DNA of 64,000 nt from Patescibacteria group bacterium. Its GTDB lineage: Bacteria; Patescibacteriota; Minisyncoccia; UBA6257; 2-01-FULL-56-20. Positions 1,195 through 55,968 of this stretch are shown piece by piece. The stretch is from positions 18,774 to 82,773 of the forward strand of contig JANLHI010000031.1 in the NCBI GenBank assembly GCA_024654525.1, read 5' to 3'. Within the stretch, counting starts at the first letter, position 1; every line of letters starts with the position of its first letter. The notes beneath the pieces are model-generated. The model was given only the letters and a program-made list of their open reading frames with translations, did not search any database and was not told the origin of the DNA. The position numbers and the translations under genes were made by a program.

Positions 1195-1300
1195 TCGGAT
1201 TGCGGATGTCAGATTAAGGATGATACATTTCAGATTTTGGATTATTTCCTTTGTCTGATTTTTTAAATTTAATAATTTGATATCTGAAATCCGATATCCG
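1195..1300 (+). repeat. 5' flanking processing-stem segment of 23S (tcagat/atctga palindromic motif family)
   Basis: ggatgtcagat...atctgaaatccgatatccgaatttggg is complementary to the 3' flank at 4722-4802 (caaatttcggatttcggac...), the expected RNase III-type stem enclosing the 23S. Confidence 0.5.
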
Positions 1301-1571
1301 AATTTGGGCATAAGGGCGAATGGTGGATGCCTAGACATCAAAAGGCGAAGAAGGACGCAGCGTAACGGCGATACGCCTCGGGAAGGTGTGTAGCAACCGA
1401 TGATCCGAGGATTTCCGAATGGGGAAACCTTACTGCGCAAACCGCAGTAGCCGTGCCGTTTATCGGTACGGAGCATACCCGCTGAAGTGAAACATCTCAG
1501 TAAGCGGAGGAATAAAGAACAATAGTTATTCCCCAAGTAGCGGCGAGCGAAAAGGGAAGAGCCTAAACTTA

Positions 1572-1648
1572 TCAGATGTCGGACTTTGGATGTCAGATTT
1601 CAGATTTTTTTATCTGACGTTTGGTTTCTGAAGTCCGATGTCTGATGA
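1572..1648 (+). repeat. IVS-like imperfect palindromic insertion in 23S (copy 1 of the tcagat/atctga family)
   Basis: gatgtcggactttggatgtcagatttcagatttttttatctgacgtttggtttctgaagtccgatgtctga; inserted after the gtagcggcgagcgaaaaggg block (about E. coli position 270). Confidence 0.55.
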
Positions 1649-1679
1649 GGGTCATAAGGACAGAACTCTTTTCTAGTTT

Positions 1680-1745
1680 ATAACCTATAACTGATACTTT
1701 ATGACTTCGGTCATTTATTATTGGTTATTCGTTATAGGCTAGTTA
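1680..1745 (+). repeat. AT-rich hairpin insertion in 23S (ATAACC/GGTTAT family, UUCG-loop core)
   Basis: tttataacctataactgatactttatgacttcggtcatttattattggttattcgttatagg; absent from canonical 23S at this position. Confidence 0.45.
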
Positions 1746-1927
1746 GTGGAAAAGTTACAAAATCATCAGTTAGTCGAATTGTGCTGGAAAGCCAAGCCAA
1801 AGACGGTGATAGCCCCGTAGACGAAAACAGATGATCTTTTTAGTTTTGTTTCTTGAGTACTTCGAGGTCAAACAGCTCCGAAGGAAGTTGCGAGTACTAT
1901 CTCGTAAGGCTAAATACTTTTGATGAT

Positions 1928-1964
<37 letters not shown>

Positions 1965-2044
1965 TAGGCCGGTAAGGCCGTTGAAATAGAACCTGAAACC
2001 ATTCGCTTACAAGGAGCAGAAGCACTAACGTGCGTAGCACACAA

Positions 2045-2110
2045 CTTGAAATTTATAACCTATAATTCAAATAACAATAATTTGTTATTGGTTATTTGGT
2101 TTGGGTTATT
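2045..2110 (+). repeat. AT-rich hairpin insertion in 23S (ATAACC/GGTTAT family)
   Basis: aatttataacctataattcaaataacaataatttgttattggttatttggtttgggttattggtt. Confidence 0.4.
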
Positions 2111-2772
2111 GGTTGCGTGCTACGCGCGCAGTGTAACTGTGTGCCTATTGAAGAATGAGCCAACGACTTATTATATATTGCTTGTCTAACCCCGCTCAGC
2201 GGGGGGAGGCACAGGGAAACCGAGTCTGAATAGGGCGTCGTTCCGCCGCAAGGTGAGACGGTGCAGTATATAATAGACCCGAAGCCGGAAGAGCTTGCCT
2301 TGGCCAGGATGAACTTCGGTGAAAACCGAAGGGAGGTCCGAACCGGTTGGTTGTGCAAAACCTTCGGATGAGCCGAGGTAAGGAGTGAAAAGCTAATCGA
2401 TTCCGGTAATAGCTGGTTCTCTCCGAAATATATTTTCGTATAGCGGTATACGTAGTCCTGGGGGTAGAGCACTGGATGATCTGTAAAGGTCGAAAGACCG
2501 ACAGATCAATCAAACTCCGAATACCAGAGGCGCAAGTATACTAGTTAGAATGTGGGGGCTAAGCTCCATGTTCGCGAGGGAAAAAGCCCAGACCGCAAGC
2601 TAAGGTCCCAAAATGTATGCTCAGTGTTAAAGGTAGTTTTCTGCCAGAGACAGATAGTAGGTTGGCTTAGAGGTAGCCATCCTTTAAAGAGTGTGTAACA
2701 ACTCACTATTCGATGGCAGGGGGCGCCGAAAATGTACCGGGGCTTAAGCATACTACCGAAGCTGCGGATTGT

Positions 2773-2846
2773 TCAGATGTCGGACTTCGGATGTCAGATT
2801 TCAGATTTTTTATCTGACGTCTGGTTTCTGAAATCCGATATCTGAG
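2773..2846 (+). repeat. IVS-like palindromic insertion in 23S (copy 2)
   Basis: cagatgtcggacttcggatgtcagatttcagattttttatctgacgtctggtttctgaaatccgatatctga, near-identical to copy 1. Confidence 0.55.
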
Positions 2847-3471
2847 CAGTGGTAGGAGAGCATTCTCTATGCACTGAAGGTTGACCCGTGAGGGCGACTG
2901 GAGCGTAGAGAAGAGAAAATGTTGGCATGAGTAGCCACAATCCCAATGAGAAATTGGAACCCCGAAAATCCAAGGTTTCCGTGGCACTGGCAATCAACCA
3001 CGGGTTAGGCGGCCCTAAGGCAATGGTGAAAACCGCAGCCGATGGACAGCTGGTTAATATTCCAGCCCAGCCGTATGTGTTAAGTTGGGGGACGGAGGAG
3101 ATAAGATGATGTGTCTTATTGGTTTGACATCCATATCCCGTACCTGTTGCGTCTCACTGTTGTGAGGACGTAGGAGTATGAAGAAAGGAGTGTGGAGTAT
3201 AGAGCAAGAATTTCTTGGCTCCTACTCCTTATTCCCATATCCTGCGCCGTCGCAAGAGCGAGGCGTAACAGCGCGGAGTTGGGAACGTCAGGAATTTACC
3301 TGGCGAACATTATCGAATTGCCTTCCAAGAAAAGCCCAATGTATTGCATATGGCTTCCGTACCGTAAACCGACACAGGTGGGTGAGGCGAGAAGCCTAAG
3401 GGGAACGAGTGACCTGCCGCTAAGGAACTCGGCAAAAAAGCGGCCGTAAGTTAGCAATATGGCCTGCCCTG

Positions 3472-3582
3472 TTCGGATGTCGGACTTTGGAGGTCAGATT
3501 TCGGATGACGGATTTCAGATTTTTTTTCTGACATCCGATTTCTGAGATCTGATATCTGAAATCCGATGTCTGAACTGGGCCG
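3472..3582 (+). repeat. IVS-like palindromic insertion in 23S (copy 3, longest)
   Basis: ttcggatgtcggactttggaggtcagatttcggatgacggatttcagattttttttctgacatccgatttctgagatctgatatctgaaatccgatgtctga, located in the domain III/IV variable region. Confidence 0.55.
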
Positions 3583-4408
3583 CAGCGAAAGTATCTCTGG
3601 CGACTGTTTACCAAAAACACAGCTCCCTGCGAACTCGCAAGAGGATGTATAGGGGGTGACACCTGACCGATGCGAGAAGGTCAAACTTGGGGGTAGTGCG
3701 CCGCAAGGCGTATGGCTCACCGAGCGAAGCCCTCGTCAATGTCAGCGATAACTATAATCGTTCTAAGGTAGCGCAATTCCTTTTCGGGTAAGTTCCGAAG
3801 CGCACGAAAGGTGTAACGACCGGAGAACTGTCTCAGCGGCACGCTCGGCGAAAATGCGATTCCCGTGAAGACGCGGGATACCTGCAGCAAGACGAAAAGA
3901 CCCCGGAAGCTTTACTGCAGCCTGGTATTGGCGTTAGGGTCTTAATGCGTAGCGTAGTGGGGAGGATTTGAAGCTTCGATTTCGGTCGGAGTGGATCCGT
4001 CAATGAAACACCCATCTTTAAGTCTTTAACGTCTAACCTCGACGGCAAAAACGTCGCGGAACAGTGCTTGGTAGGTAGTTTAAATGGGGCGTTTTCCTCC
4101 CAAAGAGTAACGGAGGAGTTTATTAAGGTCGGCTTAGCCCGGATGGAAATCGGGCAGGACGTGTAAACGCACAAGCCGGCTTGACTGCAAGACCTACAAG
4201 TCGCGCAGACGCGAAAGCGGAAGTTAGTGAACCGACCATTCTTTATAGAAAGGTGGGAGACAACGGATAAAAGCTACTCCGGGGATAACAGGCTGGTTTC
4301 GTCCGAGCGTTCATAGCGACGACGAAGCTCGGCACCTCGATGTCGGCTCGCCCTAGCGCGGGGGTGGAGAAGCTCCCAAGCGTTTGGCTGTTCGCCAATT
4401 AAAAGGGC

Positions 4409-4453
<45 letters not shown>

Positions 4454-4571
4454 TGCTGCAGGCGTTTACACTTGAGGGGAGTTGGCCCTAGTACGAGAGG
4501 ACCGGGCTGAACGTACCTCTGGTCTACCGGCTTTGTTACCAAATGAACCGCCGGGTAGCTATGTACGGAAG

Positions 4572-4605
<34 letters not shown>

Positions 4606-4721
4606 ACCCCAAGATTAGGTGTTGTCCGTAAGGACGAGGTCCGTGGAAGACTACCACGTTGATAGGCTCTAGGTGTAAGGCCCGTAAGGGCTTAAGCCGA
4701 GGAGTACTAATGACCTAGCTC

Positions 4722-4802
4722 AAATTTCGGATTTCGGACTTTAGGTTTCGGATGTTAGATTATTTTTAATATTCGGAACCTGAAGTTTTGATATTTGATA
4801 AT
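4722..4802 (+). repeat. 3' flanking processing-stem segment of 23S
   Basis: caaatttcggatttcggactttaggtttcggatgttagat... is complementary to the 5' flank. Confidence 0.5.
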
Positions 4803-4976: not shown

Positions 4977-5094
4977 TGCTGGTGTTTTACTCGTGTGTGC
5001 CCTACCTCTTCCCATTCCGAACAGAGAAGTAAAAGCACGCGAGCTCGATGATACTCGTCCCCTCGGGGATTGGGAAAGTAGAGTACGCCGGCAT
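4977..5094 (+). rRNA. rrf: 5S ribosomal RNA
   Basis: ccctacctcttcccattccgaacagagaagtaaaagcacgcgagc...gggaaagtagagtacgccggcat aligns along its length with the bacterial 5S consensus (CCCAUGCCGAAC loop C; helix I gctggtg pairs with cgccggc). Confidence 0.8.
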
Positions 5095-5202: not shown

Positions 5203-7260
5203 TTATTTTGGAATTGTTTTGCCGTAGTAGTCGTTTTCAAGAATTTTTGCAGAATAGGTGAATTCGTTGGCAACTACATCATTGATTGTTTTTTCGTACG
5301 CAGTATCTTCACGCCCATCATCGGATGCAATCGTTGAATTATATTTTTCTTTGTCTGTGATCCAACTTCGATTTAAGAAAATGACGAGTGGAGAGGCATC
5401 AGAGAATACGTCTCTTCCCATAAGGAGTCGGGAGTCATACTCCAGCCCGAATAAGTTTGATATTGTGGGGAGAATATCCAACGTTGAGACAGGCGTATCT
5501 ATCGTGACAATATCCATTCCTTTTTTCCAAAGAATAAAAACACTTTTATACAACTCAAAGTTTTCTTCTACAGTGTGTCCTGCAAGTTCGTCGATGGATT
5601 CCTTGGGGAGGCCGTAGGGGTAGTGGTCGTTTACGAGGGCAATCACGGTATTGTCTAGGACTCCTGCTTTTTCGAGTTTTTCGATGAGTGATTGTATCGC
5701 AAACTCAAGCTCAAGATTTGCGGCAATATACGCTCGCGAAGCTTCGGAGTAGGGAAGTTGTTCCACTGCGGATTTGTTTTTTGCCGAGATATAATTGCCG
5801 TAGAAGTTGTAATTCATATGTCCACTCATTGTCATATAGTAAGTGTGAAACGGTTGCGTACTGGTGACTATATAGTCATTCGCGGTAACTTCAATCATTT
5901 CCAGGTCGGATTCAGGCCATGTTTTTCTCACACGTAAGCCATTTCCGATTCCTTTGTAGTCATATCCAAGATTGGGCATTGAAACATTTCTGCCATAATA
6001 TGTGTAGGTATGATTGTGAAACGCTTTGGTAAGATAACCGAGTTTTTTAAATTGGTTTCCAAGTGCAAAGGGAAGATAATTTTTTGCCGATTGCAACATG
6101 CTCCAGACACCTGATTTTGGAAGAAGTCCCATATCGCTTACATATTCACCGTCGGATGTGCTTACTCCCCACACCGGGTTATAAAAATTGTTGAATACGA
6201 AACCCTCGTGCGACATTGCATAGAGCGTCGGGGTTAGTGTGGGGTCCATTGCATACGGAGAAAAAGATTCGGCGACTATAAAAATCAGATTATTTCCTTC
6301 AAACATGCCGGTACGGCTGTTTTTTTTCTCCGGCACAATAGAGGAAAAATATGTATGCATATCACGAATTGTTGGATTATTTTCTTGATCAATCAATTCT
6401 TTAAAATCAATATCCAGTATGTTGTGTGTTGAAGAAGAAATAGCTTCAGCTACGGGTGGAGTTGTGGGAATTTCGATATCTGATGTGATGCCTTTCTCTT
6501 TTTTTTCTTCAAATCCAAAGGCAAGTCGCATAAGATCGAGGCGCATGGTAGTGAGGACTCCCAGCTCTCGCACCGAAAGCTCCGGCGATGCGATGTTGTA
6601 ATACACCGCATATTGAGAGAAATTTTTTTCTTGCGTAGCGTGTATCCCTAGTATGGTGGCAATATAGCTTATCACACCAATGAGTAATACTCCGAAAAAT
6701 ATTTGCGGTTTCGGACGGGAAAGTCGTAGGTGTTTCCCGAAAAACAACAAAAACAAAATCGGAAGGAAAAAGAGAAAAATTGCGGCGCTATTTTTAAGAA
6801 TTGCCGATTTGATAACATCCAAAAATTGAAGCGCACCCTCGGCGCCAATAAGAGAGTAAAGAGGAAAGGGAGTGTGGAAGGTGTAATGGTAAATCAGCTG
6901 TCCGCCGTACATCAGTATTAAGAAGAGCGTGATGAGCACGGCTACGATCTTATTTATTCTTTTCGAGAAGAGAACAGACAGAAGGAAAAAAACTGTGGCT
7001 GCGGGTAGCGAGAATAATACTGCAAAAATATAGTCGGTGTTTATATTCCCGAACGTCCATAATCCGTACACAAGTTCAAAGTAGGATATGCTTACCGCAA
7101 AAAAAATAAAAAGCCCATAATGAGAAAAAAGAGTGGGCGGTTTTAGTGGCGGGTCGGGAATCGGTGAGGAGATACTCAATGGGTTATTTTCCGTCATGTG
7201 AGAAAGAGTATCAGGGTGAATTATTGCTTTCATTCTACTGCGTATTAAGTTTATATTCAA
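5203..7260 (-). CDS. LTA-synthase-family / sulfatase-like membrane protein (polytopic N-terminus plus extracellular sulfatase domain)
   Basis: About 5 N-terminal TM helices followed by a sulfatase-type domain (IVAESFSPYAMDP..., NHTYTYYGRN..., LVNDHYPYG) typical of LtaS-like phosphoglycerol transferases; 685 aa. Confidence 0.65.
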   Translation of the reverse strand: MNINLIRSRMKAIIHPDTLSHMTENNPLSISSPIPDPPLKPPTLFSHYGLFIFFAVSISYFELVYGLWTFGNINTDYIFAVLFSLPAATVFFLLSVLFSKRINKIVAVLITLFLILMYGGQLIYHYTFHTPFPLYSLIGAEGALQFLDVIKSAILKNSAAIFLFFLPILFLLFFGKHLRLSRPKPQIFFGVLLIGVISYIATILGIHATQEKNFSQYAVYYNIASPELSVRELGVLTTMRLDLMRLAFGFEEKKEKGITSDIEIPTTPPVAEAISSSTHNILDIDFKELIDQENNPTIRDMHTYFSSIVPEKKNSRTGMFEGNNLIFIVAESFSPYAMDPTLTPTLYAMSHEGFVFNNFYNPVWGVSTSDGEYVSDMGLLPKSGVWSMLQSAKNYLPFALGNQFKKLGYLTKAFHNHTYTYYGRNVSMPNLGYDYKGIGNGLRVRKTWPESDLEMIEVTANDYIVTSTQPFHTYYMTMSGHMNYNFYGNYISAKNKSAVEQLPYSEASRAYIAANLELEFAIQSLIEKLEKAGVLDNTVIALVNDHYPYGLPKESIDELAGHTVEENFELYKSVFILWKKGMDIVTIDTPVSTLDILPTISNLFGLEYDSRLLMGRDVFSDASPLVIFLNRSWITDKEKYNSTIASDDGREDTAYEKTINDVVANEFTYSAKILENDYYGKTIPK

Positions 7261-7423: not shown

Positions 7424-8194
7424 ATGCCCCGTTTTTTAAAACAATTTCTCTATGGGATTTTCTACCTTGCTATTTTTATCGGAATTCCCGCCGGGATATA
7501 CCTTGCGTTTTTAAAACCTGCGCCGACATGTACGGATGGAATACGAAATGGCGATGAGCAGGGGATTGATTGCGGAGGGGTGTGTGTGAAGGCGTGTATC
7601 CCCGCCGATATTCTTCCGTTGGAAGCTCCTGCGGGTATGAGAATTATTCCTCTTGATAACACGCATACTAGTTTTTTTGCGGAAGTGATTAATCCGAATG
7701 TCGGTTATGCGGCGACTCGGTTTCGTTATGCGGTTACCGTCGAGCGCAAGACGGGATCGAATATGCTATTTTCCGGAACGTCATATATTTATGGTGGTCA
7801 AGTGAGAGCGTTGGTTTTCCCTAATTTGGAGTTGAGCGACAGTGACATTACAAATGTAAAAATTGAATTCAGTGATTCAGAGTGGATTCCTTCGTCGTCA
7901 TGGATGCGTCCGCAGTTTCGTGTATTGAACATTGCTACACAGCAAGATCCTCCGGAGGGTGGGGGTACTCTTGTTGCCGAAGGAGAATTGGTTAGTGACG
8001 AGGTTATTTCGTTCCCGTCGGTTGAAATTGTCGCGGTTTTCATCGGGAGATTTGGTGAAGTGGCGGGCGTGTCTCGTACCGAAGTCTCTTCTGTTTCTCC
8101 GGCGATTCCCGTACGATTCACCGTTACGCATCCCGATATTTCCGATGTGAATGCGAGTGCGACTCGAATCATGATATCCGCGTTGCGTCCGTAA
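7424..8194 (+). CDS. hypothetical membrane-anchored protein (one N-terminal TM, Cys-rich segment CTDGIRNGDEQGIDCGGVCVKAC)
   Basis: 256-aa ORF directly upstream of, and co-oriented with, ftsW/rodA and mltG. No recognisable family. Confidence 0.4.
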   Translation: MPRFLKQFLYGIFYLAIFIGIPAGIYLAFLKPAPTCTDGIRNGDEQGIDCGGVCVKACIPADILPLEAPAGMRIIPLDNTHTSFFAEVINPNVGYAATRFRYAVTVERKTGSNMLFSGTSYIYGGQVRALVFPNLELSDSDITNVKIEFSDSEWIPSSSWMRPQFRVLNIATQQDPPEGGGTLVAEGELVSDEVISFPSVEIVAVFIGRFGEVAGVSRTEVSSVSPAIPVRFTVTHPDISDVNASATRIMISALRP

Positions 8195-8195
8195 G

Positions 8196-9245
8196 ATGAA
8201 CATGGGTCTTTTTATTCCTCTTGGCATGCTTTTTCTCGGAGGCATGCTTACTATTTCCAGCGTTTCCATGCATCTTTTTTTTCTCCAGCTTTCCTGGTTC
8301 GCAATAGGCGCGGTGGTGTTCTTGGCATTTTTCTTTTTTGATTGGCGTGCCATATTCAATAATCGGTGGTTTATTCCTTCGTTGTATGTGTTCGGAGTAA
8401 TATTGCTTGCATTCGTGACTTTTTTTGGTCCGGTGGTGCGCAATACACGAAGCTGGATTGTCATTGGCCCGTTTAATTTTCAACCGGTGGAGCTTATGAA
8501 AATCGCATTCATATTGCTTTTCGCGAGTTATTTCAGTCGGCGGCATGTCGGTGTGGCGCGGTGGAGTACTATTTTTACTTCATCAATTCTTTTTGTCATT
8601 CCGACAGGACTTGTAGCACTGCAACCTGATCTTGGTTCGGCATTCATCCTTGTGACTATTTGGTTCGGATTTCTTCTCTTTGCCGGATTACCGATGAGGA
8701 GAATTATGCTTGCGATACTTGTTTTTGCCATAGTAGGAACATACGGGTGGTCTCATATTTTCAAAGACTATCAGCGTGAGCGGATTATCAACGTATTTTA
8801 TCCTGAGCGAAATGTGTTGGGGTTGAATTACAGCACGGCGCAGTCGAAGATTGCCATTGGATCGGCGGGATTTTGGGGAAAGGGGTATGGACAGGGAACT
8901 CAAACACAGCTTGGATTTTTAACCGAGCCGGCGAGTGATTTTGCACTTGCCGCACTTATTGAAGAATGGGGTCTTATGGGTGGGCTTGCGATAATAGGTG
9001 CGTTTGTCGCATTAGAATTTTGGATTATCAGAGTAGGGAGAATCGCGGAGCGTAATTTTGAAACATTCGTATGCGTGGGGATAGCAACGATGTTCGCAAT
9101 GCAATTTTTGGTAAATGTCGGTTCTACATTGGGATTTATGCCTGTGGTAGGACTTACATTTCCTTTTTTGAGTTATGGGGGATCAAGCTTGGTTGCGGAT
9201 TTTGCGCTTATTGGTATTGTAAACTCCATACGAATACGCGTGTAA
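8196..9245 (+). CDS. SEDS-family peptidoglycan glycosyltransferase FtsW/RodA
   Basis: 10-TM profile with the PDLGSA and SYGGSS motifs; 349 aa. Confidence 0.85.
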   Translation: MNMGLFIPLGMLFLGGMLTISSVSMHLFFLQLSWFAIGAVVFLAFFFFDWRAIFNNRWFIPSLYVFGVILLAFVTFFGPVVRNTRSWIVIGPFNFQPVELMKIAFILLFASYFSRRHVGVARWSTIFTSSILFVIPTGLVALQPDLGSAFILVTIWFGFLLFAGLPMRRIMLAILVFAIVGTYGWSHIFKDYQRERIINVFYPERNVLGLNYSTAQSKIAIGSAGFWGKGYGQGTQTQLGFLTEPASDFALAALIEEWGLMGGLAIIGAFVALEFWIIRVGRIAERNFETFVCVGIATMFAMQFLVNVGSTLGFMPVVGLTFPFLSYGGSSLVADFALIGIVNSIRIRV

Positions 9246-9246
9246 T

Positions 9247-10224
9247 ATGAATCGATTTTCTGTTGTTCCGCTCAGAATAAAAATAAGTGTTGCCACGGCG
9301 ATTGTTGCCGGGCTTTTTGTATTTGGACTTATGCCGCGTGCATGGGGAGGAGCCCCTGCACAATCATTCGAGATAATGAGAGGAGAAGGGTTTCGGGAAA
9401 TAGTGGATCGCCTTCGCGATGAACGGCTTATTCGATCCTCTTTCTCTCTTAAGTTGTACAGTGTTCTTTTTGGTACTGCGTATTCGTTGAAGCCGGGGAT
9501 GTATCTCATTACTCCCTCAATGAGCGGGCCGAGAATTCTTAATGTGCTTATTGCGGGTGCGAGAAAAGAAATTCAAGTGGTGGTTCCCGAAGGGAGTTCG
9601 ATATATGACACCGATTCCATTCTTTCTACCGCGGGAGTATTGCCATCCGGAGCGTTTTCGAGTTACACACTAGAGCATCGCCTGGAAGGATATTTGTTTC
9701 CTGACACCTATAAGTTTTTTACCGGAATGTTTGTAGAAGATGTAGTGGATAAATTTCTCGACAGTTTTAATCGTAAGGCACAGCCCTTGCTTAAGGGAGA
9801 TGAGTTGCATGCTATGGAGAATTTAATTCTTGCGTCTCTTGTCGAAAAGGAGATTCCTTCATATGAAGATAGGCAGATTGTTGCGGGAATCCTCAAAAAA
9901 AGAGTTTTGGTACGTATGCCTCTTCAAGTCGATGCGACTATTTGTTATATCAAAAAACAGCGTGCCGGGAAGCCGACCGATTGTTACCCGCTTTCTCCTC
10001 TTGACTTCACAATTGATTCCCCCTACAATACGTATCTGCGCATGGGGTTCCCTCCCCAGCCCATAGGAAGTCCTGGCGTTCATGCGATTATGGCGGTACT
10101 TGCTCCAAAAGTTTCTCCATATTGGTACTACTTGAGCGATCCTTTAACAGAGAAGACCGTTTTTAGTGAGACCCTTGACGAACATGAACAAAATAGGGTT
10201 AAATATTTAAAGGTCATGCATTAA
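9247..10224 (+). CDS. mltG: endolytic murein transglycosylase MltG (YceG family)
   Basis: N-terminal TM followed by a YceG domain with the EGYLFPDTY catalytic-region motif. Confidence 0.8.
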   Translation: MNRFSVVPLRIKISVATAIVAGLFVFGLMPRAWGGAPAQSFEIMRGEGFREIVDRLRDERLIRSSFSLKLYSVLFGTAYSLKPGMYLITPSMSGPRILNVLIAGARKEIQVVVPEGSSIYDTDSILSTAGVLPSGAFSSYTLEHRLEGYLFPDTYKFFTGMFVEDVVDKFLDSFNRKAQPLLKGDELHAMENLILASLVEKEIPSYEDRQIVAGILKKRVLVRMPLQVDATICYIKKQRAGKPTDCYPLSPLDFTIDSPYNTYLRMGFPPQPIGSPGVHAIMAVLAPKVSPYWYYLSDPLTEKTVFSETLDEHEQNRVKYLKVMH

Positions 10225-10330
10225 GAGATAAAGGGAAACCCATTCGGGATTTTTCCTTTTTTGCGTCTTGGGTTTGTAAATAAATTCTTGCCTGGCGAAT
10301 GGCAGGAAATATCAACTTTTTATTTATTTT

Positions 10331-13300
10331 ATGCATCAAAAAAAGCTTCCCACGAAAGATTTCTCGAGTTCGAAGCCGTTGGTACAACCGATAAATTTAA
10401 ATGAGGTACAGCTTGATTCATATAAGTGGTTTTTAGAAAAGGGACTCGCGGAACTTTTTCGCGAGGCTTCGCCTATTTGTGATCATACCGGAAAAGAAAT
10501 AGCCCTCTCGTTTGATGGGTATCGTTTTGACGAGCCAAAGTATGATGAAACGATGGCTCGATATAAAGATGCAACATACGAAGCGGCGTTGCGGGTAAAT
10601 GTTTCCATTGAGTATCTCAAGACGAAGCACAAAGAGACTCAGGAGATATATTTTGGAGATTTCCCCATTATGACGGAAAGGGGAACATTTATTATAAACG
10701 GAGTTGAGCGCGTGGTGGTGTCTCAGCTTATTCGTTCCGCGGGAGTGTATTTCACCGCAATACCATGGAGAGGACACAATCTTTTTGGCGCCAAGATTAT
10801 TCCAAATCGCGGTGCGTGGCTTGAATTTGAAACCGACATAGACGGTGTTATTGGCGTAAAAATCGACAGGCATCGTAAAACACCCGTGTCCGATCTCCTT
10901 CGCGTACTTGGACTTTCGAATGAAGAAATGCTCAAGACATTTGAGAATGTCGATACGGGTTCGGTGCGTTATATCGAAAACACACTTAAGAAAGATGTTG
11001 CAAAAGACAAAGATGAATCGTATCTCGAAATTTACAGACGTCTTCGTCCGGGAGATCCTGCAACCGCACAGACTGCAAAGGGACTTGTCGATGGCTTGTT
11101 CCAAAGATTTGATCGATATGACTTGGGCGAAGTAGGTCGGTTTAAAATGAATCAGCGACTCCTTCTTCCCAAAGAAAATGACACTCGTCTTCTTGAGATA
11201 AATGATATTGTGGCGATTGTACGTGAGATTATTGGTCTTAACAATAATCCCGAGGCGGGGCCGGACGATATTGATCATCTTGGTAACCGTCGCTTGAAAG
11301 CGGTGGGGGAATTGTTGCAAGGTCGTCTCCGGATAGGGCTTGCACGTTTGCGCCGTATCATCCAGGACAGAATGTCAACGCAAGCAAAGGAAGATATTCT
11401 TCCCGCACAGCTTATTAATTTCCGTCCTATCGTAGCGGTGGTGAAGGAATTTTTTGCATCATCTCAATTATCCCAGTTTATGGATCAGGTAAATCCATTG
11501 GCGGAGCTTGAGCATAAGCGTCGTATTTCCGCGCTTGGTCCCGGGGGGCTTACGCGAGAACGAGCGAGTTTCGAAGTTCGTGATGTACACCGTTCTCACT
11601 ATGGACGTATTTGTCCGATTCAAACACCGGAAGGAGCGAATATTGGTCTTATCAACTATTTGGCAAGTTTTGCAAAAATAAATCAGTTTGGATTTCTTGA
11701 AGCACCCTATGTGCGTGTGGAGAAGGGTCGTGTGACGGGTGATGTGGTATGGCTTGATGCGCTTGAAGAGGAGCGCGTGAAAATTACGCATGCGGGTGTG
11801 CCTCGCGACGAAAAAGGAAACATCACCGTATCTTTTGTCGAGGCGCGCGTGAAGGGTGATCCGGGAACTGTGGCATCAAATGAAGTTGACTATATTGATG
11901 TGGCTCCTCACGAGTTTATCAGTGTTGCGACATCTCTTATTCCTTTCTTGCAACACGATGATGCAAACCGTGCGCTTATGGGTAGTAACATGCAACGGCA
12001 GGCAGTGGGATCCGTTCGACCACAGGCTCCCTACGTGGGAACAGGAGAAGAAGAACGTGTTGCACAATATTCCGGATATGTAGTACTTGCTTCCGAAGAC
12101 GGTACCGTACTTGAAGCGGATGCGACTCATGTGAAGATGGACTACAAGAAGCTTGGTATTAAAAGCTATACGCTTCAAAAGTTTAAGCGTTCGAATCAAT
12201 TCACTTGCATTTCGCAACACCCCATCGTGGTTGCGGGGGATACGGTAAAAAAAGGAGATGTGCTTGTTGATGGCCCTTCTACGGAGAATGGTGTGCTTGC
12301 GCTTGGGCAAAATCTTCTTGTTTCGTTCATGTCGTGGGAAGGTGCAAACTTTGAAGACGCGATTATTCTTTCCGAGCGAGTAGTGCAAAATGACAATTTC
12401 TCCTCTATTCATATAGAGGATTATTATTGTGATGTTCGTGATACTAAGCTTGGTCCGGAAATTACTACGCCGGATATCCCTAATATTTCTGAAGAAAAAC
12501 TTCGCAACCTTGATGAAGAAGGAATTGTGCGTGTTGGTGCGGAGGTAAAAGCGGGTGATATTCTTGTAGGGAAAATTTCTCCGAAAGGAGAAGCGGAACT
12601 TACTGCGGAAGAACGCCTTTTGAGAGCTATTTTTGGAGAGAAGGCGCGCGATGTGAAAGATACATCTCTTACGCTTCCTCATGGAAAGAGAGGGCGTATC
12701 GTGAGTATTAAGGTTTTTGATCGTGAGCAAGGAGATAAATTGGAGCCGGGTATTATCAAACGGATTCAGGTTGAAGTCGCACAACTTCGTAAAGTGCAGG
12801 CGGGAGATAAGCTCGCCGGACGTCACGGAAATAAAGGTGTTATTTCGCAAGTACGTGCAGTTGAAGATATGCCATATCTTCCCGATGGAACTCCGGTTGA
12901 TATTATTTTGAATCCTCTTGGTGTGGTGTCGCGTATGAATTTGGGACAGGTACTTGAAACGCATCTTGGTCTCGCTGCTGCGAAACTTGGTTACCGCGCG
13001 ATAACGCCGGGGTTGGATTCGGCGAGTGAAGAAGATATCAAGAACGAATTGCGTGCGGCGGGATACCCGGAAGATGGAAAAACCGTGCTTTATGACGGAC
13101 GTACCGGAAAGCCTTTTGAAAATCGCGTTTCGGTGGGCGTTATTTATATGTTGAAACTGAACCACCTTATAGAAGACAAGGCGCATGTTCGTTCTATCGG
13201 GCCTTACTCGCTTATCACGCAACAGCCTCTTGGGGGAAAGGCGCAGTTTGGTGGACAGCGTTTCGGAGAAATGGAAGTGTGGGCGCTTGAAGGATATGGC

Positions 13301-16300
13301 GCTAAACATGTATTGCAGGAAATGCTTACCATCAAATCCGATGATGTGGTGGGACGTGCTGCGGCATACGAATCCATTATTCGTGGAGAAGTTATTAAAG
13401 AGCCGAATATTCCCGCATCATTTAATGTATTGGTGAATGAATTGAAATCGCTTGGGTTTAATATTGCTCCCATATACGAAGAAGTGGAATCTGTTCATCG
13501 TGAGAACTTTTCTGCACTTAAAATCAGCGTGGCGTCTCCGGAAAATATCAGTGAATGGTCACATGGAGAAGTTACGAAGCCTGAGACAATCAATTATCGT
13601 ACGCAACGACCTGAGAAAGACGGGCTTTTCTCGGAGCGTATTTTCGGTCCTACAAAAGATTATGAATGTTATTGCGGTAAGTATCGGCGCATTCGCTATA
13701 AAGGGGTGGTGTGTGACAAATGTGGCGTTGAAGTAACTCGAGCTTCGGTGCGACGTGAACGTATTGGTCATATTTCGCTTGCGGTGCCAGTTACTCACAT
13801 TTGGTTTTTAAAGAGCGTACCATCTCGGTTGAGTTTGATGCTTGATGTATCCTCAATGAAGCTCGAGAGGGTGGTGTATTACTCGGCGTACATTGTGACT
13901 GATGTTGATGAGACTCGGAAGCATGAGGCTCTTACGGAGCTTGAGCGTGAAGTGAAGGGTAAACTGAAAATTGTAGGTAAAGATAAAGAGGCAAAGAGCG
14001 AAGTGAATTCGGCGGCCGCAGACGTACGCGAAATGCTTGAAGGACTGAGGCGTGGACAAGTCCTTTCAGAAGGGGAATATTTCAGTTTGGCGCGCAGATT
14101 TGGAGGTGTGTTTACTGCAGGTACGGGAGCGAGCGCAATACGGAAAATTCTCGAGAAGATGGATCTTCGGAAGGAAATTCAGAGAACGGAAAAAGAAATT
14201 GAACTTTCTACCGGAAAAGTAGTGGATGCAAAACATCTTCGACGACTGAAGATGTTGAAGTCGATGCTTAAGAACGGTATTCGTCCCGAATGGATGGTAC
14301 TCACCACATTGCCGGTGCTTCCGCCCGACCTTCGTCCTATGGTGGCACTTGATGGAGGGCGTTACGCGACATCGGATTTGAATGATTTGTATCGGCGCGT
14401 TATCAATCGCAATAATCGGTTGAAGAAACTTCTTGAAATTAAAGCTCCCGATGTAATCGTGCAAAACGAAAAACGTATGTTGCAGGAAGCGGTGGATGCG
14501 CTTATCGATAATTCAGCTCGTTTCGGCACGCAACAGCTTTCCGCACAGCGAAGACCACTCCGCTCGCTCGCGGATATGCTTAAGGGAAAGCAAGGACGAT
14601 TCCGGCAAAATCTTTTGGGAAAGCGTGTGGATTATTCCGGTCGTTCCGTGATTGTGGTAGGTCCCAAACTTAAACTTGACGAATGCGGACTTCCTAAGCG
14701 TATGGCGCTCGAGCTTTTCCGTCCCTTTGTTATTTCTGAAATTGTCCGGCGTGGACTTGCACATAATATTCGTGGTGCATCGCGAGTAATTGAAGAGGGA
14801 GGGGATGACGTATGGGCTATCCTTGAGGAAATTATCAAGACGCGATATGTACTCTTGAACCGTGCACCGACATTACACAGGCTTTCTGTGCAGGCATTTC
14901 GTCCTATTCTTGTAGAAGGTCTTGCTATTCAAATTCCTCCGCTTGTCTGTGTGGCGTTTAACGCCGATTTTGACGGTGATCAGATGGCGGTACATCTTCC
15001 TCTTTCCGATGTTGCTCAGAAAGAAGCGCGCGAAGTGATGTCTGCGGCACTCAATCTTTTGAAGCCTGCGACGGGTGAACTTATTGTGAGTCCTACACAA
15101 GATATGGTATTGGGTTCGTATTATCTTACCCGATCTGATCCTGATTTTACCGGTACGCCAAAATCATTCCTTGATATCCGCGAAGCGATTCTCTCATACG
15201 ATATGGGAATAATTGCATTGCATACTCCTCTTGTCGTAAACGGGCTCGAGACAACACTTGGAAGACTTATTTTTAATGAAGCGCTTATGGGGACGGTGCC
15301 GTATGTGAATGAAGGATTCAACAAGAAAAAACTTTCTCGGTTGATTGAATCCATATTGAGTGCTCATGGCGTCGAGGTTGCGCGTGATGTGCTTGACCGT
15401 GTAAAACTTCTTGGGTTTGAGATGGCGACACTATCTGGTATCACGTGGGCTATTTCCGATCTTGCGACTCCTGTTGAAAAGGCAGATGTATTGGCTCGTT
15501 CGGAGGAAGCGGTATTACGTATTCGTGAGCAGTATCAAGATGGACTTTTGACTGTGCCGGAGCGTCGCGCGCGTGTGATTAGCGTATGGGAAGCCGCAAA
15601 AGCCGACATTGCAAAACTGGTTTCGGTTACGCTTTCTCCCACCAATCCCATTTATCAAATTGTCGATTCGGGGGCTCGTGGTTCATGGGCTCAGCCTATT
15701 CAGATGATGGGTATGAAGGGTTTGGTGCAAAATCCGAAGGGTGAAATTATAGAGCTTCCTCTTCGCTCTTCTCTTAAAGAAGGTCTTTCCGTGTTGGAAT
15801 ACTTTATTTCCACTCACGGTGCGCGTAAGGGAACGACCGATACGGCGCTCAAAACCGCTCAAGCGGGGTATCTTACTCGTCGTCTCGTGGATGTATCGCA
15901 AGATATCACTATTTCAGAGGAAGATTGCAAAACAAAGGAAGGAGTTGAGATGCGGCGTACAGGAGAAAAAGATTTTAACTTACCGTTTGGCACTCGTATT
16001 TTTTCGCGTACAGTTCTTGAAGATGTTCGTGTGGGAAAGAGGGTGGTGGTGAAAGCAGGAGAAATCGTGGATCGTGCTGCTGCCGATCTTATTGAGCAGT
16101 CTGATATAGATGTGGTGAAAATTCGTTCGCCTATTGCTTGTAAAACGTTGTATGGCATATGTGCAAAATGTTACGGCTATGATTTAAGCGATAATAAGCC
16201 CGTACAGCTTGGAACTGCGGTGGGAGTGGTTGCTGCGCAATCCATCGGTGAACCGGGAACGCAGCTTACCATGCGTACATTCCACCTTGGAGGTATGGCG

Positions 16301-17131
16301 GGTGTTGACATTACCCATGGATTGCCTCGAGTCGAAGAAATTTTCGAGGCGCGTCCTCCGAAGGGACGTGCGGCGCTTGCGCCCGCAGACGGCGTAGTAA
16401 CAAAAATTGAAGATCGTGGTGCGCTCAAGATACTTACTTTGCGATTGGAAGGGAAAAAGAAAGAAGTTGAACTGTCGGTGCCTCGTTCCGCCTTGCTTTT
16501 CACGGAAACAGGCAAAGAAGTGCATCGTGGCGATCGACTTTCGGAAGGGAATATCGACCTTCGCGAGCTTCTTGAGCTCAAAGGTATTTCTGACGTGGAG
16601 CGTTATATCGCAAGCGAAGTGCAGCAGATCTATCTTTCTGAAGGTGCCTACATTAACAATAAACATATTGATGTGATTGTACGTCAGATGTTCTCGCGTG
16701 TTCGCATAAAAGATGCGGGAGATGCACCGGATTTTGTAGCGGGTGAAATCATAGAGAAGCCCAAATTCCTTGAAGTGAATCGCGCGTTGAAAAAGGAAGG
16801 GCGAGCGCTTGCGAAAGCAGATCAGATACTTATGGGTATTACGCAGATATCTCTTACTACCGAAAGTTTCTTGTCCTCCGCATCTTTCCAAGATACCGCT
16901 CGCGTATTGGTGCGTGCCGCGGTTGAAGGGCGTGTTGATAAGCTTCGTGGCTTCAAGGAAAATGTGATTATTGGAAGGTTGATTCCGATTGGTAAGAGAA
17001 AATCATCGGTACAAGATGACGTTGCTGATGAACCGGAAAATATAAAAGAAGAGGAAGAGGGGAAAGTCGAGTCTTCCTCGGATGATTCTCAAAAGGAGAA
17101 AGGAGGGGTTGTCGAGGAAATCTCGGGTTGA
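10331..17131 (+). CDS. rpoBC: fused DNA-directed RNA polymerase beta-beta' (rpoB-rpoC in one 2266-aa ORF)
   Basis: The N-terminal ~1050 aa is RpoB (GPGGLTRERA, ICPIQTPEGANIG, HLIEDKAHVRSIGPYSLITQQPLGGKAQFGGQRFGEMEVWALE). From about nt 13489 it is RpoC (ISVASPENISEWSHGEVTKPETINYRT, zinc finger CYCGKY...CDKCGVEVT, NADFDGDQM). There is no stop or frameshift at the junction PIYEEVE|SVHRENFSALKI. Confidence 0.9.
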   Translation: MHQKKLPTKDFSSSKPLVQPINLNEVQLDSYKWFLEKGLAELFREASPICDHTGKEIALSFDGYRFDEPKYDETMARYKDATYEAALRVNVSIEYLKTKHKETQEIYFGDFPIMTERGTFIINGVERVVVSQLIRSAGVYFTAIPWRGHNLFGAKIIPNRGAWLEFETDIDGVIGVKIDRHRKTPVSDLLRVLGLSNEEMLKTFENVDTGSVRYIENTLKKDVAKDKDESYLEIYRRLRPGDPATAQTAKGLVDGLFQRFDRYDLGEVGRFKMNQRLLLPKENDTRLLEINDIVAIVREIIGLNNNPEAGPDDIDHLGNRRLKAVGELLQGRLRIGLARLRRIIQDRMSTQAKEDILPAQLINFRPIVAVVKEFFASSQLSQFMDQVNPLAELEHKRRISALGPGGLTRERASFEVRDVHRSHYGRICPIQTPEGANIGLINYLASFAKINQFGFLEAPYVRVEKGRVTGDVVWLDALEEERVKITHAGVPRDEKGNITVSFVEARVKGDPGTVASNEVDYIDVAPHEFISVATSLIPFLQHDDANRALMGSNMQRQAVGSVRPQAPYVGTGEEERVAQYSGYVVLASEDGTVLEADATHVKMDYKKLGIKSYTLQKFKRSNQFTCISQHPIVVAGDTVKKGDVLVDGPSTENGVLALGQNLLVSFMSWEGANFEDAIILSERVVQNDNFSSIHIEDYYCDVRDTKLGPEITTPDIPNISEEKLRNLDEEGIVRVGAEVKAGDILVGKISPKGEAELTAEERLLRAIFGEKARDVKDTSLTLPHGKRGRIVSIKVFDREQGDKLEPGIIKRIQVEVAQLRKVQAGDKLAGRHGNKGVISQVRAVEDMPYLPDGTPVDIILNPLGVVSRMNLGQVLETHLGLAAAKLGYRAITPGLDSASEEDIKNELRAAGYPEDGKTVLYDGRTGKPFENRVSVGVIYMLKLNHLIEDKAHVRSIGPYSLITQQPLGGKAQFGGQRFGEMEVWALEGYGAKHVLQEMLTIKSDDVVGRAAAYESIIRGEVIKEPNIPASFNVLVNELKSLGFNIAPIYEEVESVHRENFSALKISVASPENISEWSHGEVTKPETINYRTQRPEKDGLFSERIFGPTKDYECYCGKYRRIRYKGVVCDKCGVEVTRASVRRERIGHISLAVPVTHIWFLKSVPSRLSLMLDVSSMKLERVVYYSAYIVTDVDETRKHEALTELEREVKGKLKIVGKDKEAKSEVNSAAADVREMLEGLRRGQVLSEGEYFSLARRFGGVFTAGTGASAIRKILEKMDLRKEIQRTEKEIELSTGKVVDAKHLRRLKMLKSMLKNGIRPEWMVLTTLPVLPPDLRPMVALDGGRYATSDLNDLYRRVINRNNRLKKLLEIKAPDVIVQNEKRMLQEAVDALIDNSARFGTQQLSAQRRPLRSLADMLKGKQGRFRQNLLGKRVDYSGRSVIVVGPKLKLDECGLPKRMALELFRPFVISEIVRRGLAHNIRGASRVIEEGGDDVWAILEEIIKTRYVLLNRAPTLHRLSVQAFRPILVEGLAIQIPPLVCVAFNADFDGDQMAVHLPLSDVAQKEAREVMSAALNLLKPATGELIVSPTQDMVLGSYYLTRSDPDFTGTPKSFLDIREAILSYDMGIIALHTPLVVNGLETTLGRLIFNEALMGTVPYVNEGFNKKKLSRLIESILSAHGVEVARDVLDRVKLLGFEMATLSGITWAISDLATPVEKADVLARSEEAVLRIREQYQDGLLTVPERRARVISVWEAAKADIAKLVSVTLSPTNPIYQIVDSGARGSWAQPIQMMGMKGLVQNPKGEIIELPLRSSLKEGLSVLEYFISTHGARKGTTDTALKTAQAGYLTRRLVDVSQDITISEEDCKTKEGVEMRRTGEKDFNLPFGTRIFSRTVLEDVRVGKRVVVKAGEIVDRAAADLIEQSDIDVVKIRSPIACKTLYGICAKCYGYDLSDNKPVQLGTAVGVVAAQSIGEPGTQLTMRTFHLGGMAGVDITHGLPRVEEIFEARPPKGRAALAPADGVVTKIEDRGALKILTLRLEGKKKEVELSVPRSALLFTETGKEVHRGDRLSEGNIDLRELLELKGISDVERYIASEVQQIYLSEGAYINNKHIDVIVRQMFSRVRIKDAGDAPDFVAGEIIEKPKFLEVNRALKKEGRALAKADQILMGITQISLTTESFLSSASFQDTARVLVRAAVEGRVDKLRGFKENVIIGRLIPIGKRKSSVQDDVADEPENIKEEEEGKVESSSDDSQKEKGGVVEEISG

Positions 17132-17164
17132 CGCAATTCCAATATTCAAGTAACCTTTTTCGAC

Positions 17165-17575
17165 ATGGATACTGTATCACGTGAATATGAAGTGGCATTT
17201 CTTGTCCGCGAGGAAGATGGGGCGAGCAAAGTGGTCGCGCTTATTGGAAAGTATGGCACCATACTTTCGCAGGGGCAGTTAAAAAGAGTTGCCTTTGCGT
17301 ACCCGATTGAAAAAACCGCTGCGGGGTATTTTGGAACCGTAAAAGTTTCCGTATTGCCGGATGCAGTGGTGCGTCTTGAAAAGGACCTTGAAACGACGTC
17401 GGAAGCACTCCGGTCTTTGGTGCTTCGTCTTCCTGTAGTGAAAGAATCAAGCGTGCAAGATGAGCAATCGAAGCCGCGACGGGCGCGATTGTCCCGCAGT
17501 GAAGTATCTCCAAAGTCTTCTGCGACGCTTACCAACGAAGCTCTTGAGAAGAAGATAGAAGAGATATTACAATAG
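17165..17575 (+). CDS. rpsF: 30S ribosomal protein S6
   Basis: YEVAFLVRE... S6 fold signature; acidic/Lys-rich C-terminus. Confidence 0.8.
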   Translation: MDTVSREYEVAFLVREEDGASKVVALIGKYGTILSQGQLKRVAFAYPIEKTAAGYFGTVKVSVLPDAVVRLEKDLETTSEALRSLVLRLPVVKESSVQDEQSKPRRARLSRSEVSPKSSATLTNEALEKKIEEILQ

Positions 17576-17680
17576 GAGTAATCGCTAATAATGCGAATTA
17601 AGGCAAATAATGCTAATATGACAGCAAGCGGATTTATTCGCATTATTTAATCAAGATTTGCATTACTAGCGATTACTCCT
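17575..17680 (+). promoter_or_regulatory. large inverted repeat (19/20-bp arms) with a nested 12-bp perfect IR between rpsF and ssb
   Basis: ggagtaatcgctaataatgc (17575-17594) pairs with gcattactagcgattactcc (17661-17680); the inner aataatgcgaat pairs with attcgcattatt. The right arm ends at the ssb ATG, and no SD is present. Confidence 0.4.
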
Positions 17681-18160
17681 ATGAATCTCAACAAAGTTTT
17701 TCTCATTGGAAGACTGACTGCCGACCCGCAATTGCGGAATACGCCGGGGGGACAATCGGTGACTAGTTTCAGCGTTGCGACCAACCGCGTGTGGAACGAT
17801 AAATTGGGTTCGAAACAGAATGAGACCGAATATCATAATGTGGTAGCATGGGGAAGGAGCGCCGAAATCGCCTCGCAGTTTTTAAAGAAAGGAAGCATGG
17901 CGTTTGTTGAGGGACGTTTGAGAACGCGAACGTGGCAGGATAAACAGGGTCAGACAAGAAAGACGACAGAAATCATGCTTGAGCGTCTCCAATTGGGACC
18001 GCGCAGCATGGGAGGGGGAGGGTCCGGAGGAGATGCTCCTTTGGGAGGAGGGTTTGCTCCTGCTCAATCCCGCGAGGAAAGTATTGCGGAAGAAGTGCCG
18101 GTGATAGATATTGACGAAGAGGGAAAGGGTGAGATTAAAGAGGAAGACTTGCCTTTTTAG
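17681..18160 (+). CDS. ssb: single-stranded DNA-binding protein
   Basis: OB-fold N-terminal (VFLIGRLTADPQLR...), Gly-rich linker, acidic tail ending in DLPF. Confidence 0.85.
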   Translation: MNLNKVFLIGRLTADPQLRNTPGGQSVTSFSVATNRVWNDKLGSKQNETEYHNVVAWGRSAEIASQFLKKGSMAFVEGRLRTRTWQDKQGQTRKTTEIMLERLQLGPRSMGGGGSGGDAPLGGGFAPAQSREESIAEEVPVIDIDEEGKGEIKEEDLPF

Positions 18161-18242
18161 TGTTTCTGCGTTAAAAATGAGAAACTGGGAGTGGGGATAT
18201 TCCTTACTCCATTCTCTTTACTACTTACTTTCTCATAAAACC

Positions 18243-18407
18243 GTGGCAAAGAAAATAAAAACAACTTTAAAGTTGCAACTTGAAGCGGGTAAGGCAAACC
18301 CCTCTCCGTCGTTGCTCCGCTCCTCCTTAAAACCCATCGGTTTTAATATTTCCGCCACGGGAAAACTTCCGTTTTCCCGACCCTTTTCCCACGTCGCCGG
18401 ATTTTAG
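18243..18407 (+). pseudogene. degenerate duplicate of the rplK 5' end (L11 N-terminal fragment)
   Basis: A GTG-initiated frame encodes VAKKIKTTLKLQLEAGKANPSPS..., about 75% nt identity to the first ~110 nt of rplK (18420-18530). It then diverges and terminates. Confidence 0.35.
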
Positions 18408-18419
18408 TTATTTAAAGCA

Positions 18420-18845
18420 ATGGCAAAAAAAATCAAGACAAAACTTAAGTTACAATTATCTGCTGGTAAAGCGAATCCGGCTCCGCCCGTGGGAACGGCG
18501 CTTGGTCCCCATGGTATTAACATTGCCGAATTTTGTAAGCAGTTTAACGACAAAACAAAAGAAATGACGGGCGATGTGGTACCTGCGGAAATCACGATTT
18601 TCGAAGACCGAAGTTTCAGTTTTATTTTAAAGACTTCTCCGGCGTCTGCGCTTTTGCGTAAAGCGGCGGGAATTGAAAAGGGTTCTGCGGATCCGCTAAA
18701 AACGAAAGTAGGGAAAGTGACTAAGGCGGATGTGCGTGCGATTGCGGAAAAGAAAATGCCTGACTTAAACGCAAACGATTTGGACGCGGCGGAAAAGATT
18801 ATTCGAGGAACAGCGCGCTCGATGGGGATTGAAGTAATCGATTAG
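18420..18845 (+). CDS. rplK: 50S ribosomal protein L11
   Basis: [43 protein letters not shown]... is the canonical L11 N-terminus. Confidence 0.9.
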
Positions 18846-55254: not shown

Positions 55255-55968
55255 TTACACCGCTTTTTTATTAAGACTTTCAAAGTCATTAAGCACAAAA
55301 AATCCTACAATGAGTACTAAGAGTACCGGATATGCAAACTCATCATGTATCAGTATAAGGTAATTGAAACATGCGTGCAATACGGTTGCAATCACCAACC
55401 CTCCCACAATAAAGCGTTTTGCATTGAATTCACGGATACTGATTGCCCAAAAATATCCCACTATTCCCGAGGTGAGCGTGTGAAGCAAGGTAGCTCCTAT
55501 AAAACGAAGGGAAAGAGTTTCAAATACATTCCCGAAAAAATTTATGTGGTAAGGAGAGATACCGTTCAGAACTCCTATGTTTTCGACAGTGGCGAATCCA
55601 AGTGCGGCAACCACAGTATAAATCATGGCATCTACGGGTTCGTCGAATGCGGGATTTTTATGTACGGACACGTATGCGGCGGTGAATTTTATGATTTCTT
55701 CTATTCCTGCGAAGATAATCAGTCCGATTGCGATGGTGATGAATGAAAAAATCTGCGGTGAGGAAGCGGGGGATAGTGTCTCAATAGGGATGAAAAGGGC
55801 ATTTACCAAGAGTTGTAATCCCAGCGCGATTATCGAGAACGCCGCGCCTACGATAAACGTCCAAAGTATTACTCGGCGAGGTTCGGGGTGTAAATCTTCG
55901 TGGAGATAAAACATTAACCATGCGAACGCGGGGATCATTCCGAAAAACAAAATGAGAAACGTTACCAT
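55255..55968 (-). CDS. PrsW-family intramembrane metalloprotease-like protein
   Basis: Polytopic; IEEIIKF (EExxK), GFATVENIG (FxxxEN) and HTLTSGIVG (H-box) motifs. Confidence 0.55.
   Translation of the reverse strand: MVTFLILFFGMIPAFAWLMFYLHEDLHPEPRRVILWTFIVGAAFSIIALGLQLLVNALFIPIETLSPASSPQIFSFITIAIGLIIFAGIEEIIKFTAAYVSVHKNPAFDEPVDAMIYTVVAALGFATVENIGVLNGISPYHINFFGNVFETLSLRFIGATLLHTLTSGIVGYFWAISIREFNAKRFIVGGLVIATVLHACFNYLILIHDEFAYPVLLVLIVGFFVLNDFESLNKKAV

Follow-up and report, generated by a model that had tools for sequence, protein, structure and literature searches.

The window, by which we mean the whole 64,000-nucleotide stretch of Patescibacteria DNA analysed here, carries at positions 7424–18845 the genes for FtsW/RodA and YceG, a gene in which rpoB and rpoC are joined (designated here as rpoBC), and the genes for S6, SSB, and L11, in this order; a thymidylate kinase gene comes after them. 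The rpoBC gene of the window lies outside the classical rplKAJL–rpoBC arrangement. The related contig L081 (JGI, 79.5 kb) shares the order FtsW–YceG–rpoBC–S6–...–SSB–L11; its full order is FtsW/RodA, YceG, rpoBC, S6, peptide deformylase, SSB, L11, and thymidylate kinase. The positions of rpoBC and its parts are given in Table 1.

Table 1. Positions of the rpoBC gene and of its parts in the window
Feature	Position	Strand	Basis
Fused rpoB-rpoC (beta-beta') ORF	10331..17131	+	RpoB and RpoC domains all in one frame
beta (RpoB) module, aa 1-1046	10331..13468	+	NF001616; Pfam Rpb2 domains 1, 2, 3, 45, 6, and 7
Junction/linker, aa 1047-1062 (PIYEEVESVHRENFSA)	13469..13516	+	Outside both family models
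beta' (RpoC) module, aa 1063-2266	13517..17128	+	TIGR02386; Pfam Rpb1 domains 1-5; NADFDGD
beta' N-terminal zinc-binding motif CYCGKY...CDKCGVEVT, aa 1113-1136	13667..13738	+	Translation

An earlier note on this DNA had described rpoB and rpoC as fused in frame into a single 2266-aa ORF, and the ORF listing, the translation, Pfam, and NCBIfam all agree with that description. One open frame of 2266 codons plus a stop codon begins with ATG, and its translation (...SFNVLVNELKSLGFNIAPIYEEVESVHRENFSALKISVASPENISEWSHGEVTKPETINYRT...DYECYCGKYRRIRYKGVVCDKCGVEVT) continues to the first stop at 17129–17131. At the junction, the raw sequence and its translation read ...NELKSLGFNIAPIYEEVESVHRENFSALKISVASPENISEWSHGEVTKPETINYRT... 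and then on into DYECYCGKYRRIRYKGVVCDKCGVEVT, which bears out the note's claim that neither a stop codon nor a frameshift separates the two parts. Pfam placed all Rpb2 domains at aa 23–1046 and then all Rpb1 domains at aa 1058–2146. The beta part is a full-length member of the RpoB family NF001616 (aa 9–1046 against model positions 4–1093 of 1096; 1504.5 bits vs a cut-off of 896) and also scored above the cut-off of a second RpoB model, TIGR02013 (1486 vs 801 bits). Likewise, the beta' part is a full-length member of the RpoC family TIGR02386 (aa 1063–2222 against model positions 2–1140 of 1147; 1531.7 bits vs a cut-off of 963.5). The catalytic NADFDGD of the beta' module was read in the translation, within AFNADFDGDQMAVH. 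The zinc-binding motif that the note had ascribed to the beta' part is present as well, and its cysteines (C214, C216, C229, and C232 in the numbering of alignment A2) are invariant or almost so. An open frame of 2266 codons cannot have arisen by chance. These results confirmed a natural beta-beta' fusion architecture, with both modules complete and in the same frame, without a stop or a frameshift. An alternative genetic code or stop-codon readthrough was considered and is unneeded, as the ORF contains no stop under the standard code. The C-terminal tail of the beta' part (aa 2223–2266, ~44 aa) is low in complexity, acidic and lysine-rich (..KRKSSVQDDVADEPENIKEEEEGKVESSSDDSQKEKGGVVEEISG), and lies outside the RpoC model.

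The junction had also been called linkerless. This is not strictly so: ~16 residues (aa 1047–1062) fit neither family model; leftovers of the beta tail and of the beta' N-terminus act as a short linker. The boundary proposed earlier, between EEVE and SVHREN, corresponds to nt 13489/13490 and lies within the region 13440–13560 to which the fusion had been assigned. When delimited by the conserved elements on either side, ..LGFNI of beta and FSALKI.. of beta', the linker is 13–14 aa long and poorly conserved. The linker and the next residues read APIYEEVESVHREN in the window (between the anchors ..SLGFNI and F-S-A-L-K-I), RPVFDSENDRRED in L001, QPLYETDTDRKDN in L002, QLLYENEGDRKDA in L081, and NSVMDETQAVVVDRLKALQIGIASP in L003, the fused relatives described below; the linkers of this clade begin with a conserved P-x-aromatic. 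In unfused relatives, RpoB ends in an acidic tail of 9–26 aa past ..LG(L/M)NV, followed by the stop codon and a short spacer, and 2–11 residues precede the conserved F/L-x-S/A-I/L motif of RpoC. For example, RpoB of L073 ends in ...EEIDKEEKK*, after which comes MNFNALKLKIASP, and RpoC of L074 starts with M-ENFDSIRLKIASP. The last residues of the fused linker (..REN-F, ..KDN-F) align with the native RpoC N-terminus lacking its Met, and the linker is near the lower limit of the 11–35 aa that the two free tails of the unfused relatives add up to.

An AlphaFold2 model of the fragment aa 900–1250, built from a 53-sequence junction-spanning alignment and of mediocre quality (mean pLDDT 69.8, pTM 0.34), placed a strand at aa 1043–1048, a coil, and a strand at aa 1062–1067, with a linker pLDDT of ~66. 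The predicted fold is consistent with the linker being a short loop between two strands. No solved chain longer than ~1600 aa was found among the best 60 PDB matches to the full protein or to the junction segment. Any fused chain should have headed these matches, and so they provide no natural fused beta-beta' structure for comparison.

To learn whether the fusion is inherited, species-representative genomes were scanned with a 550-aa junction-spanning query. At each of the 80 resulting loci, the matches to the end of RpoB and to the beginning of RpoC were located, and the rpoB frame was followed to its first stop. The two genes were fused at three of these loci: L001 (a Candidatus Paceibacterota MAG, MEGAHIT), L002 (MAG BP6.bin90, SPAdes), and L003. 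They were split at the other 77, which include six Patescibacteria (L072–L074 and L076–L078), the nearest unfused relatives. In these six genomes, rpoC is read in another frame than rpoB, and the aligned ends are 34–179 nt apart. None of the ~66 non-Patescibacteria genomes in the scan was fused. The best match in an exhaustive search of representatives was P0121 (2246 aa, 77% identity), which is encoded on L081. The comparison with rpoB and rpoC of close relatives that the earlier note had proposed thus returned the same fused junction in L001, L002, L003, and L081. The in-frame junction also occurs in seven metagenomic fragments (P0001, P0002, P0007, P0016, P0020, P0023, and P0028), and the fused clade, with the window included, comprises 12 distinct sequences. 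The fusion is heritable, being present in 11 further sequences from independent assemblies. The separate rpoB and rpoC genes of Paceibacterota (L072–L078, L004, and L005) are the nearest sequences to the two halves of the window gene and have the same compact domain content, but they differ from it in the stop after the acidic beta tail, the spacer, and an rpoC start in another frame.

A neighbour-joining (NJ) tree was calculated from 2203 well-aligned columns of concatenated or fused RpoB and RpoC. The five full-length fused genes formed a single clade in 100 of 100 bootstraps, and this clade was embedded among unfused Paceibacterota. Members of this clade are 70–75% identical to the window protein, vs 59–66% overall for the closest unfused relatives. 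A second tree, for the junction region with the linker columns dropped and the fragments included, again recovered the window clade in 100/100 bootstraps. Because the fused clade was monophyletic with this support in both trees, the fusion has a single origin in an ancestor of the clade and has been kept, down to ~70% identity, while a protein that evolves very slowly diverged substantially. We consider it highly probable, at roughly 0.85, that the window carries a genuine, vertically inherited rpoB–rpoC fusion of a Paceibacterota (Patescibacteria/CPR) clade.

The earlier note had added that such fusions are rare. We examined this with a survey in which a 1200-aa junction-centred query was compared with the representatives of 50%-identity clusters and the best 150 matches were considered. 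At least 24 diverged clusters among these 150 are fused: a single chain of 1948–2859 aa contains the C-terminal end of RpoB as well as the N-terminal end of RpoC, with linkers of 5–95 aa. Fusions are thus uncommon, as the scan of the ~66 non-Patescibacteria genomes illustrates, but recurrent, having arisen many times. Named examples are those of Mycoplasma wenyonii (WP_014849752.1; P0126, 2648 aa), an Anaerolineaceae MAG (P0278), and a Deltaproteobacteria MAG (P0307). The M. wenyonii fusion is a cultured-genome case, from a haemotropic mycoplasma. The P0131, P0135, and P0136 clusters are also fused; P0135 and P0136 are metagenomic and well populated, with 12–21 members. The other natural fusions (P0126, P0278, P0307, P0003–P0006, P0015, and P0077) are, like that of the window, single beta-beta' polypeptides, but they are only 37–57% identical to the window protein and belong to other 50%-identity clusters.

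Several of these other fusions come from Patescibacteria. In the tree with the fragments included, P0005 and P0006 grouped with L004 and L005, P0003 grouped with P0004, P0077 lay near L073, and P0015 lay near L078, while a single group of all CPR fusions received a bootstrap support of 0/100. These fusions branch with different unfused genomes, and Patescibacteria hold several separate fused lineages. Some of the fusions represented by a single fragment could be assembly errors, and those found in at least two sequences are more credible. Proteins of this kind are already present, and partly named, in public databases: NCBI labels P0005 'DNA-directed RNA polymerase subunit beta/beta', partial [Patescibacteria group bacterium]', and JGI labels P0121 'beta' subunit' only.

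The most likely course of events can be drawn from the living unfused relatives. The ancestor would have had rpoB and rpoC adjacent, co-oriented, and closely spaced, and a small deletion or mutation would have eliminated the stop codon of rpoB together with the spacer and the start codon of rpoC. The remnants of the two protein ends, the C-terminal tail of beta and the N-terminus of beta', 13–14 aa in all, would then have become the tether. The gene product is expected to be a single beta-beta' chain of ~250 kDa whose two modules fold as beta and beta' normally do, within a core enzyme that is otherwise ordinary. The tether would fix a 1:1 stoichiometry and make the beta/beta' assembly step intramolecular. 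In bacterial RNA polymerase, the C-terminus of beta and the N-terminus of beta' sit together in the clamp, and it is because the two ends adjoin that the tethered design is workable.

Tethering is probably near neutral, and its repeated appearance across lineages would fit the compaction of intergenic DNA by deletions and not a new function. The occurrence of fusions in several independent Patescibacteria lineages, Wolbachia, Helicobacter, and M. wenyonii nevertheless raises another reading, in which beta-beta' tethering is a recurrent, selected adaptation of ultra-small bacteria with reduced genomes and not a by-product of neutral deletion. If so, tethering could, for example, secure both the stoichiometry and the assembly of RNA polymerase in cells that have very few copies or that lack helpers such as the omega subunit, and the conserved P-x-aromatic at the start of the linker would reflect a structural role. 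We regard this adaptive origin as unlikely.

It is also conceivable that the genes are fused at the DNA level while the cell contains separate subunits, produced either by internal initiation of beta' near the junction or by proteolysis of the linker. The window linker does contain an in-frame GTG (V1052), and the start of rpoBC itself has no obvious Shine–Dalgarno sequence, so that the lack of one in the linker is uninformative. The poorly conserved linker, modelled as a coil of intermediate confidence, could be accessible to proteases, and the beta-beta' chain may be cleaved after translation. However, the linker has no conserved in-frame ATG, GTG, or TTG, and such codons are absent altogether between the anchors of L002 and L081; because of this, beta' can be obtained in those two organisms only as part of the fusion. 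The natural fusion of gastric helicobacters, studied by Zakharova et al. in 1998, reportedly remains one tethered polypeptide when the enzyme is purified, which likewise counts against separate subunits. Engineered beta-beta' fusions are used intact: the synthetic E. coli rpoB–rpoC fusion is functional, as cited in a bioRxiv preprint (10.1101/2021.11.05.467461), and a fused M. tuberculosis rpoBC serves for polymerase purification (10.64898/2026.04.06.716786). These constructs (the tethered E. coli beta-beta' and M. tuberculosis pMP61) show that a core enzyme can be active with beta covalently tethered to beta'; both were made in the laboratory with designed linkers, whereas the linker of the window is natural and 13–14 aa long. 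Separate subunits in the cell are accordingly improbable in our estimation, and a single chain remains the preferred reading.

A further alternative is a sequencing or assembly artefact, in which a spurious indel or a chimeric join removed the rpoB stop and set rpoC in frame. The exact window protein has no identical entry, and hence no replicate, in the public protein collection, and MAG-type assemblies do carry errors. In L003, for instance, a 10-N scaffold gap at 6957–6966 inside rpoB shifts the frame and shortens the apparent ORF to 1452 aa. This gap is ~700 nt upstream of the L003 junction, which itself lies in contiguous sequence; scaffold gaps of the same type probably explain many of the 300–900-aa database matches on long contigs. 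Against an artefact, the same in-frame junction recurs in 11 other diverged sequences that come from different projects and assemblers. In the DNA alignment of the junction, mean column identity is 71% and the reading frame is never broken; the relatives are set apart by numerous third-position and synonymous changes and by a single clean 3-nt indel. In addition, the fused sequences form one clade with 100/100 support, and artefacts are not inherited. An artefact is effectively refuted by the inheritance of the junction in one clade of diverged sequences, and we consider it very improbable.

Natural fusions were said in the earlier note to be known from Helicobacter and Wolbachia, and the literature supports this: those of Helicobacteraceae/Wolinella and Wolbachia are documented in PMC7483510, which refers to Lane & Darst 2010 and Zakharova et al. 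1999, and in PMC9696931. The Helicobacter/Wolinella type (NF007172/PRK09603) resembles the window gene in being a single ORF with beta followed by beta', joined C-terminus to N-terminus, and inherited within a clade. It differs in its independent origin and in its length, the NF007172 model having 2890 positions vs 2266 aa for the window protein. The Wolbachia type (NF011417/PRK14844) has the same architecture but belongs to another phylum and has another linker, and the window protein is far shorter. That the fused gene was gained horizontally from one of these lineages (Campylobacterota/Helicobacter or Wolbachia type) can be dismissed, because its position in the phylogeny, nested with unfused Paceibacterota RpoB and RpoC at 59–66% identity, points to an independent origin: the two fused models gave the top raw NCBIfam bits only through covering both halves, and their scores are far below the family cut-offs (NF007172, 2176.3 bits vs 5372; NF011417, 2085.9 bits vs 4632), the protein lacks the extra length of the 2.8–2.9 kb-class fused proteins, and the flanking genes are syntenic with those of its relative L081.

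The fusion in the window is therefore an independently evolved, clade-conserved case of a known architecture and reveals no new mechanism. Full-text literature searches found no paper describing a beta-beta' fusion in Patescibacteria/CPR, and the present case adds a clade-wide CPR fusion to the textbook examples of Helicobacter and Wolbachia. Annotation and marker-gene pipelines, in which rpoB and rpoC each count as a single-copy marker, may miscount or misname the fused gene. The junction provides a clean shared derived character with which to define its Paceibacterota clade. At 2266 aa, the protein is a minimal large-subunit module that occurs naturally as a single chain, and it could ease the recombinant expression of a CPR polymerase.

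Two other regions of the window have unusual features. The 23S rRNA gene (1300–4729, forward strand) matches the whole 2925-position model over 3430 nt, which corresponds to ~500 nt of insertions, and is followed downstream by a 5S rRNA gene (4977–5094, forward strand). A 16S rRNA gene was not found in any part of the window, and hence not in the 1300 nt upstream of the 23S rRNA gene, where a 139-aa ORF has no Pfam match. On the reverse strand, 55962–58892 encodes a valine–tRNA ligase of 976 aa (NF004349, 763.6 bits vs a cut-off of 704) with an inserted domain of ~175 aa that belongs to the histidine phosphatase superfamily (Pfam His_Phos_1, aa 481–652, E = 2e-41). The best NCBIfam likeness of this insert is to alpha-ribazole phosphatase and phosphoglycerate mutase-like enzymes, all below their cut-offs. 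The insert splits the class I synthetase body, in that the valine–tRNA ligase match ends at approximately aa 477 and matches to synthetase families restart at approximately aa 653. A phosphatase domain inside a valine–tRNA ligase is an unusual insertion.
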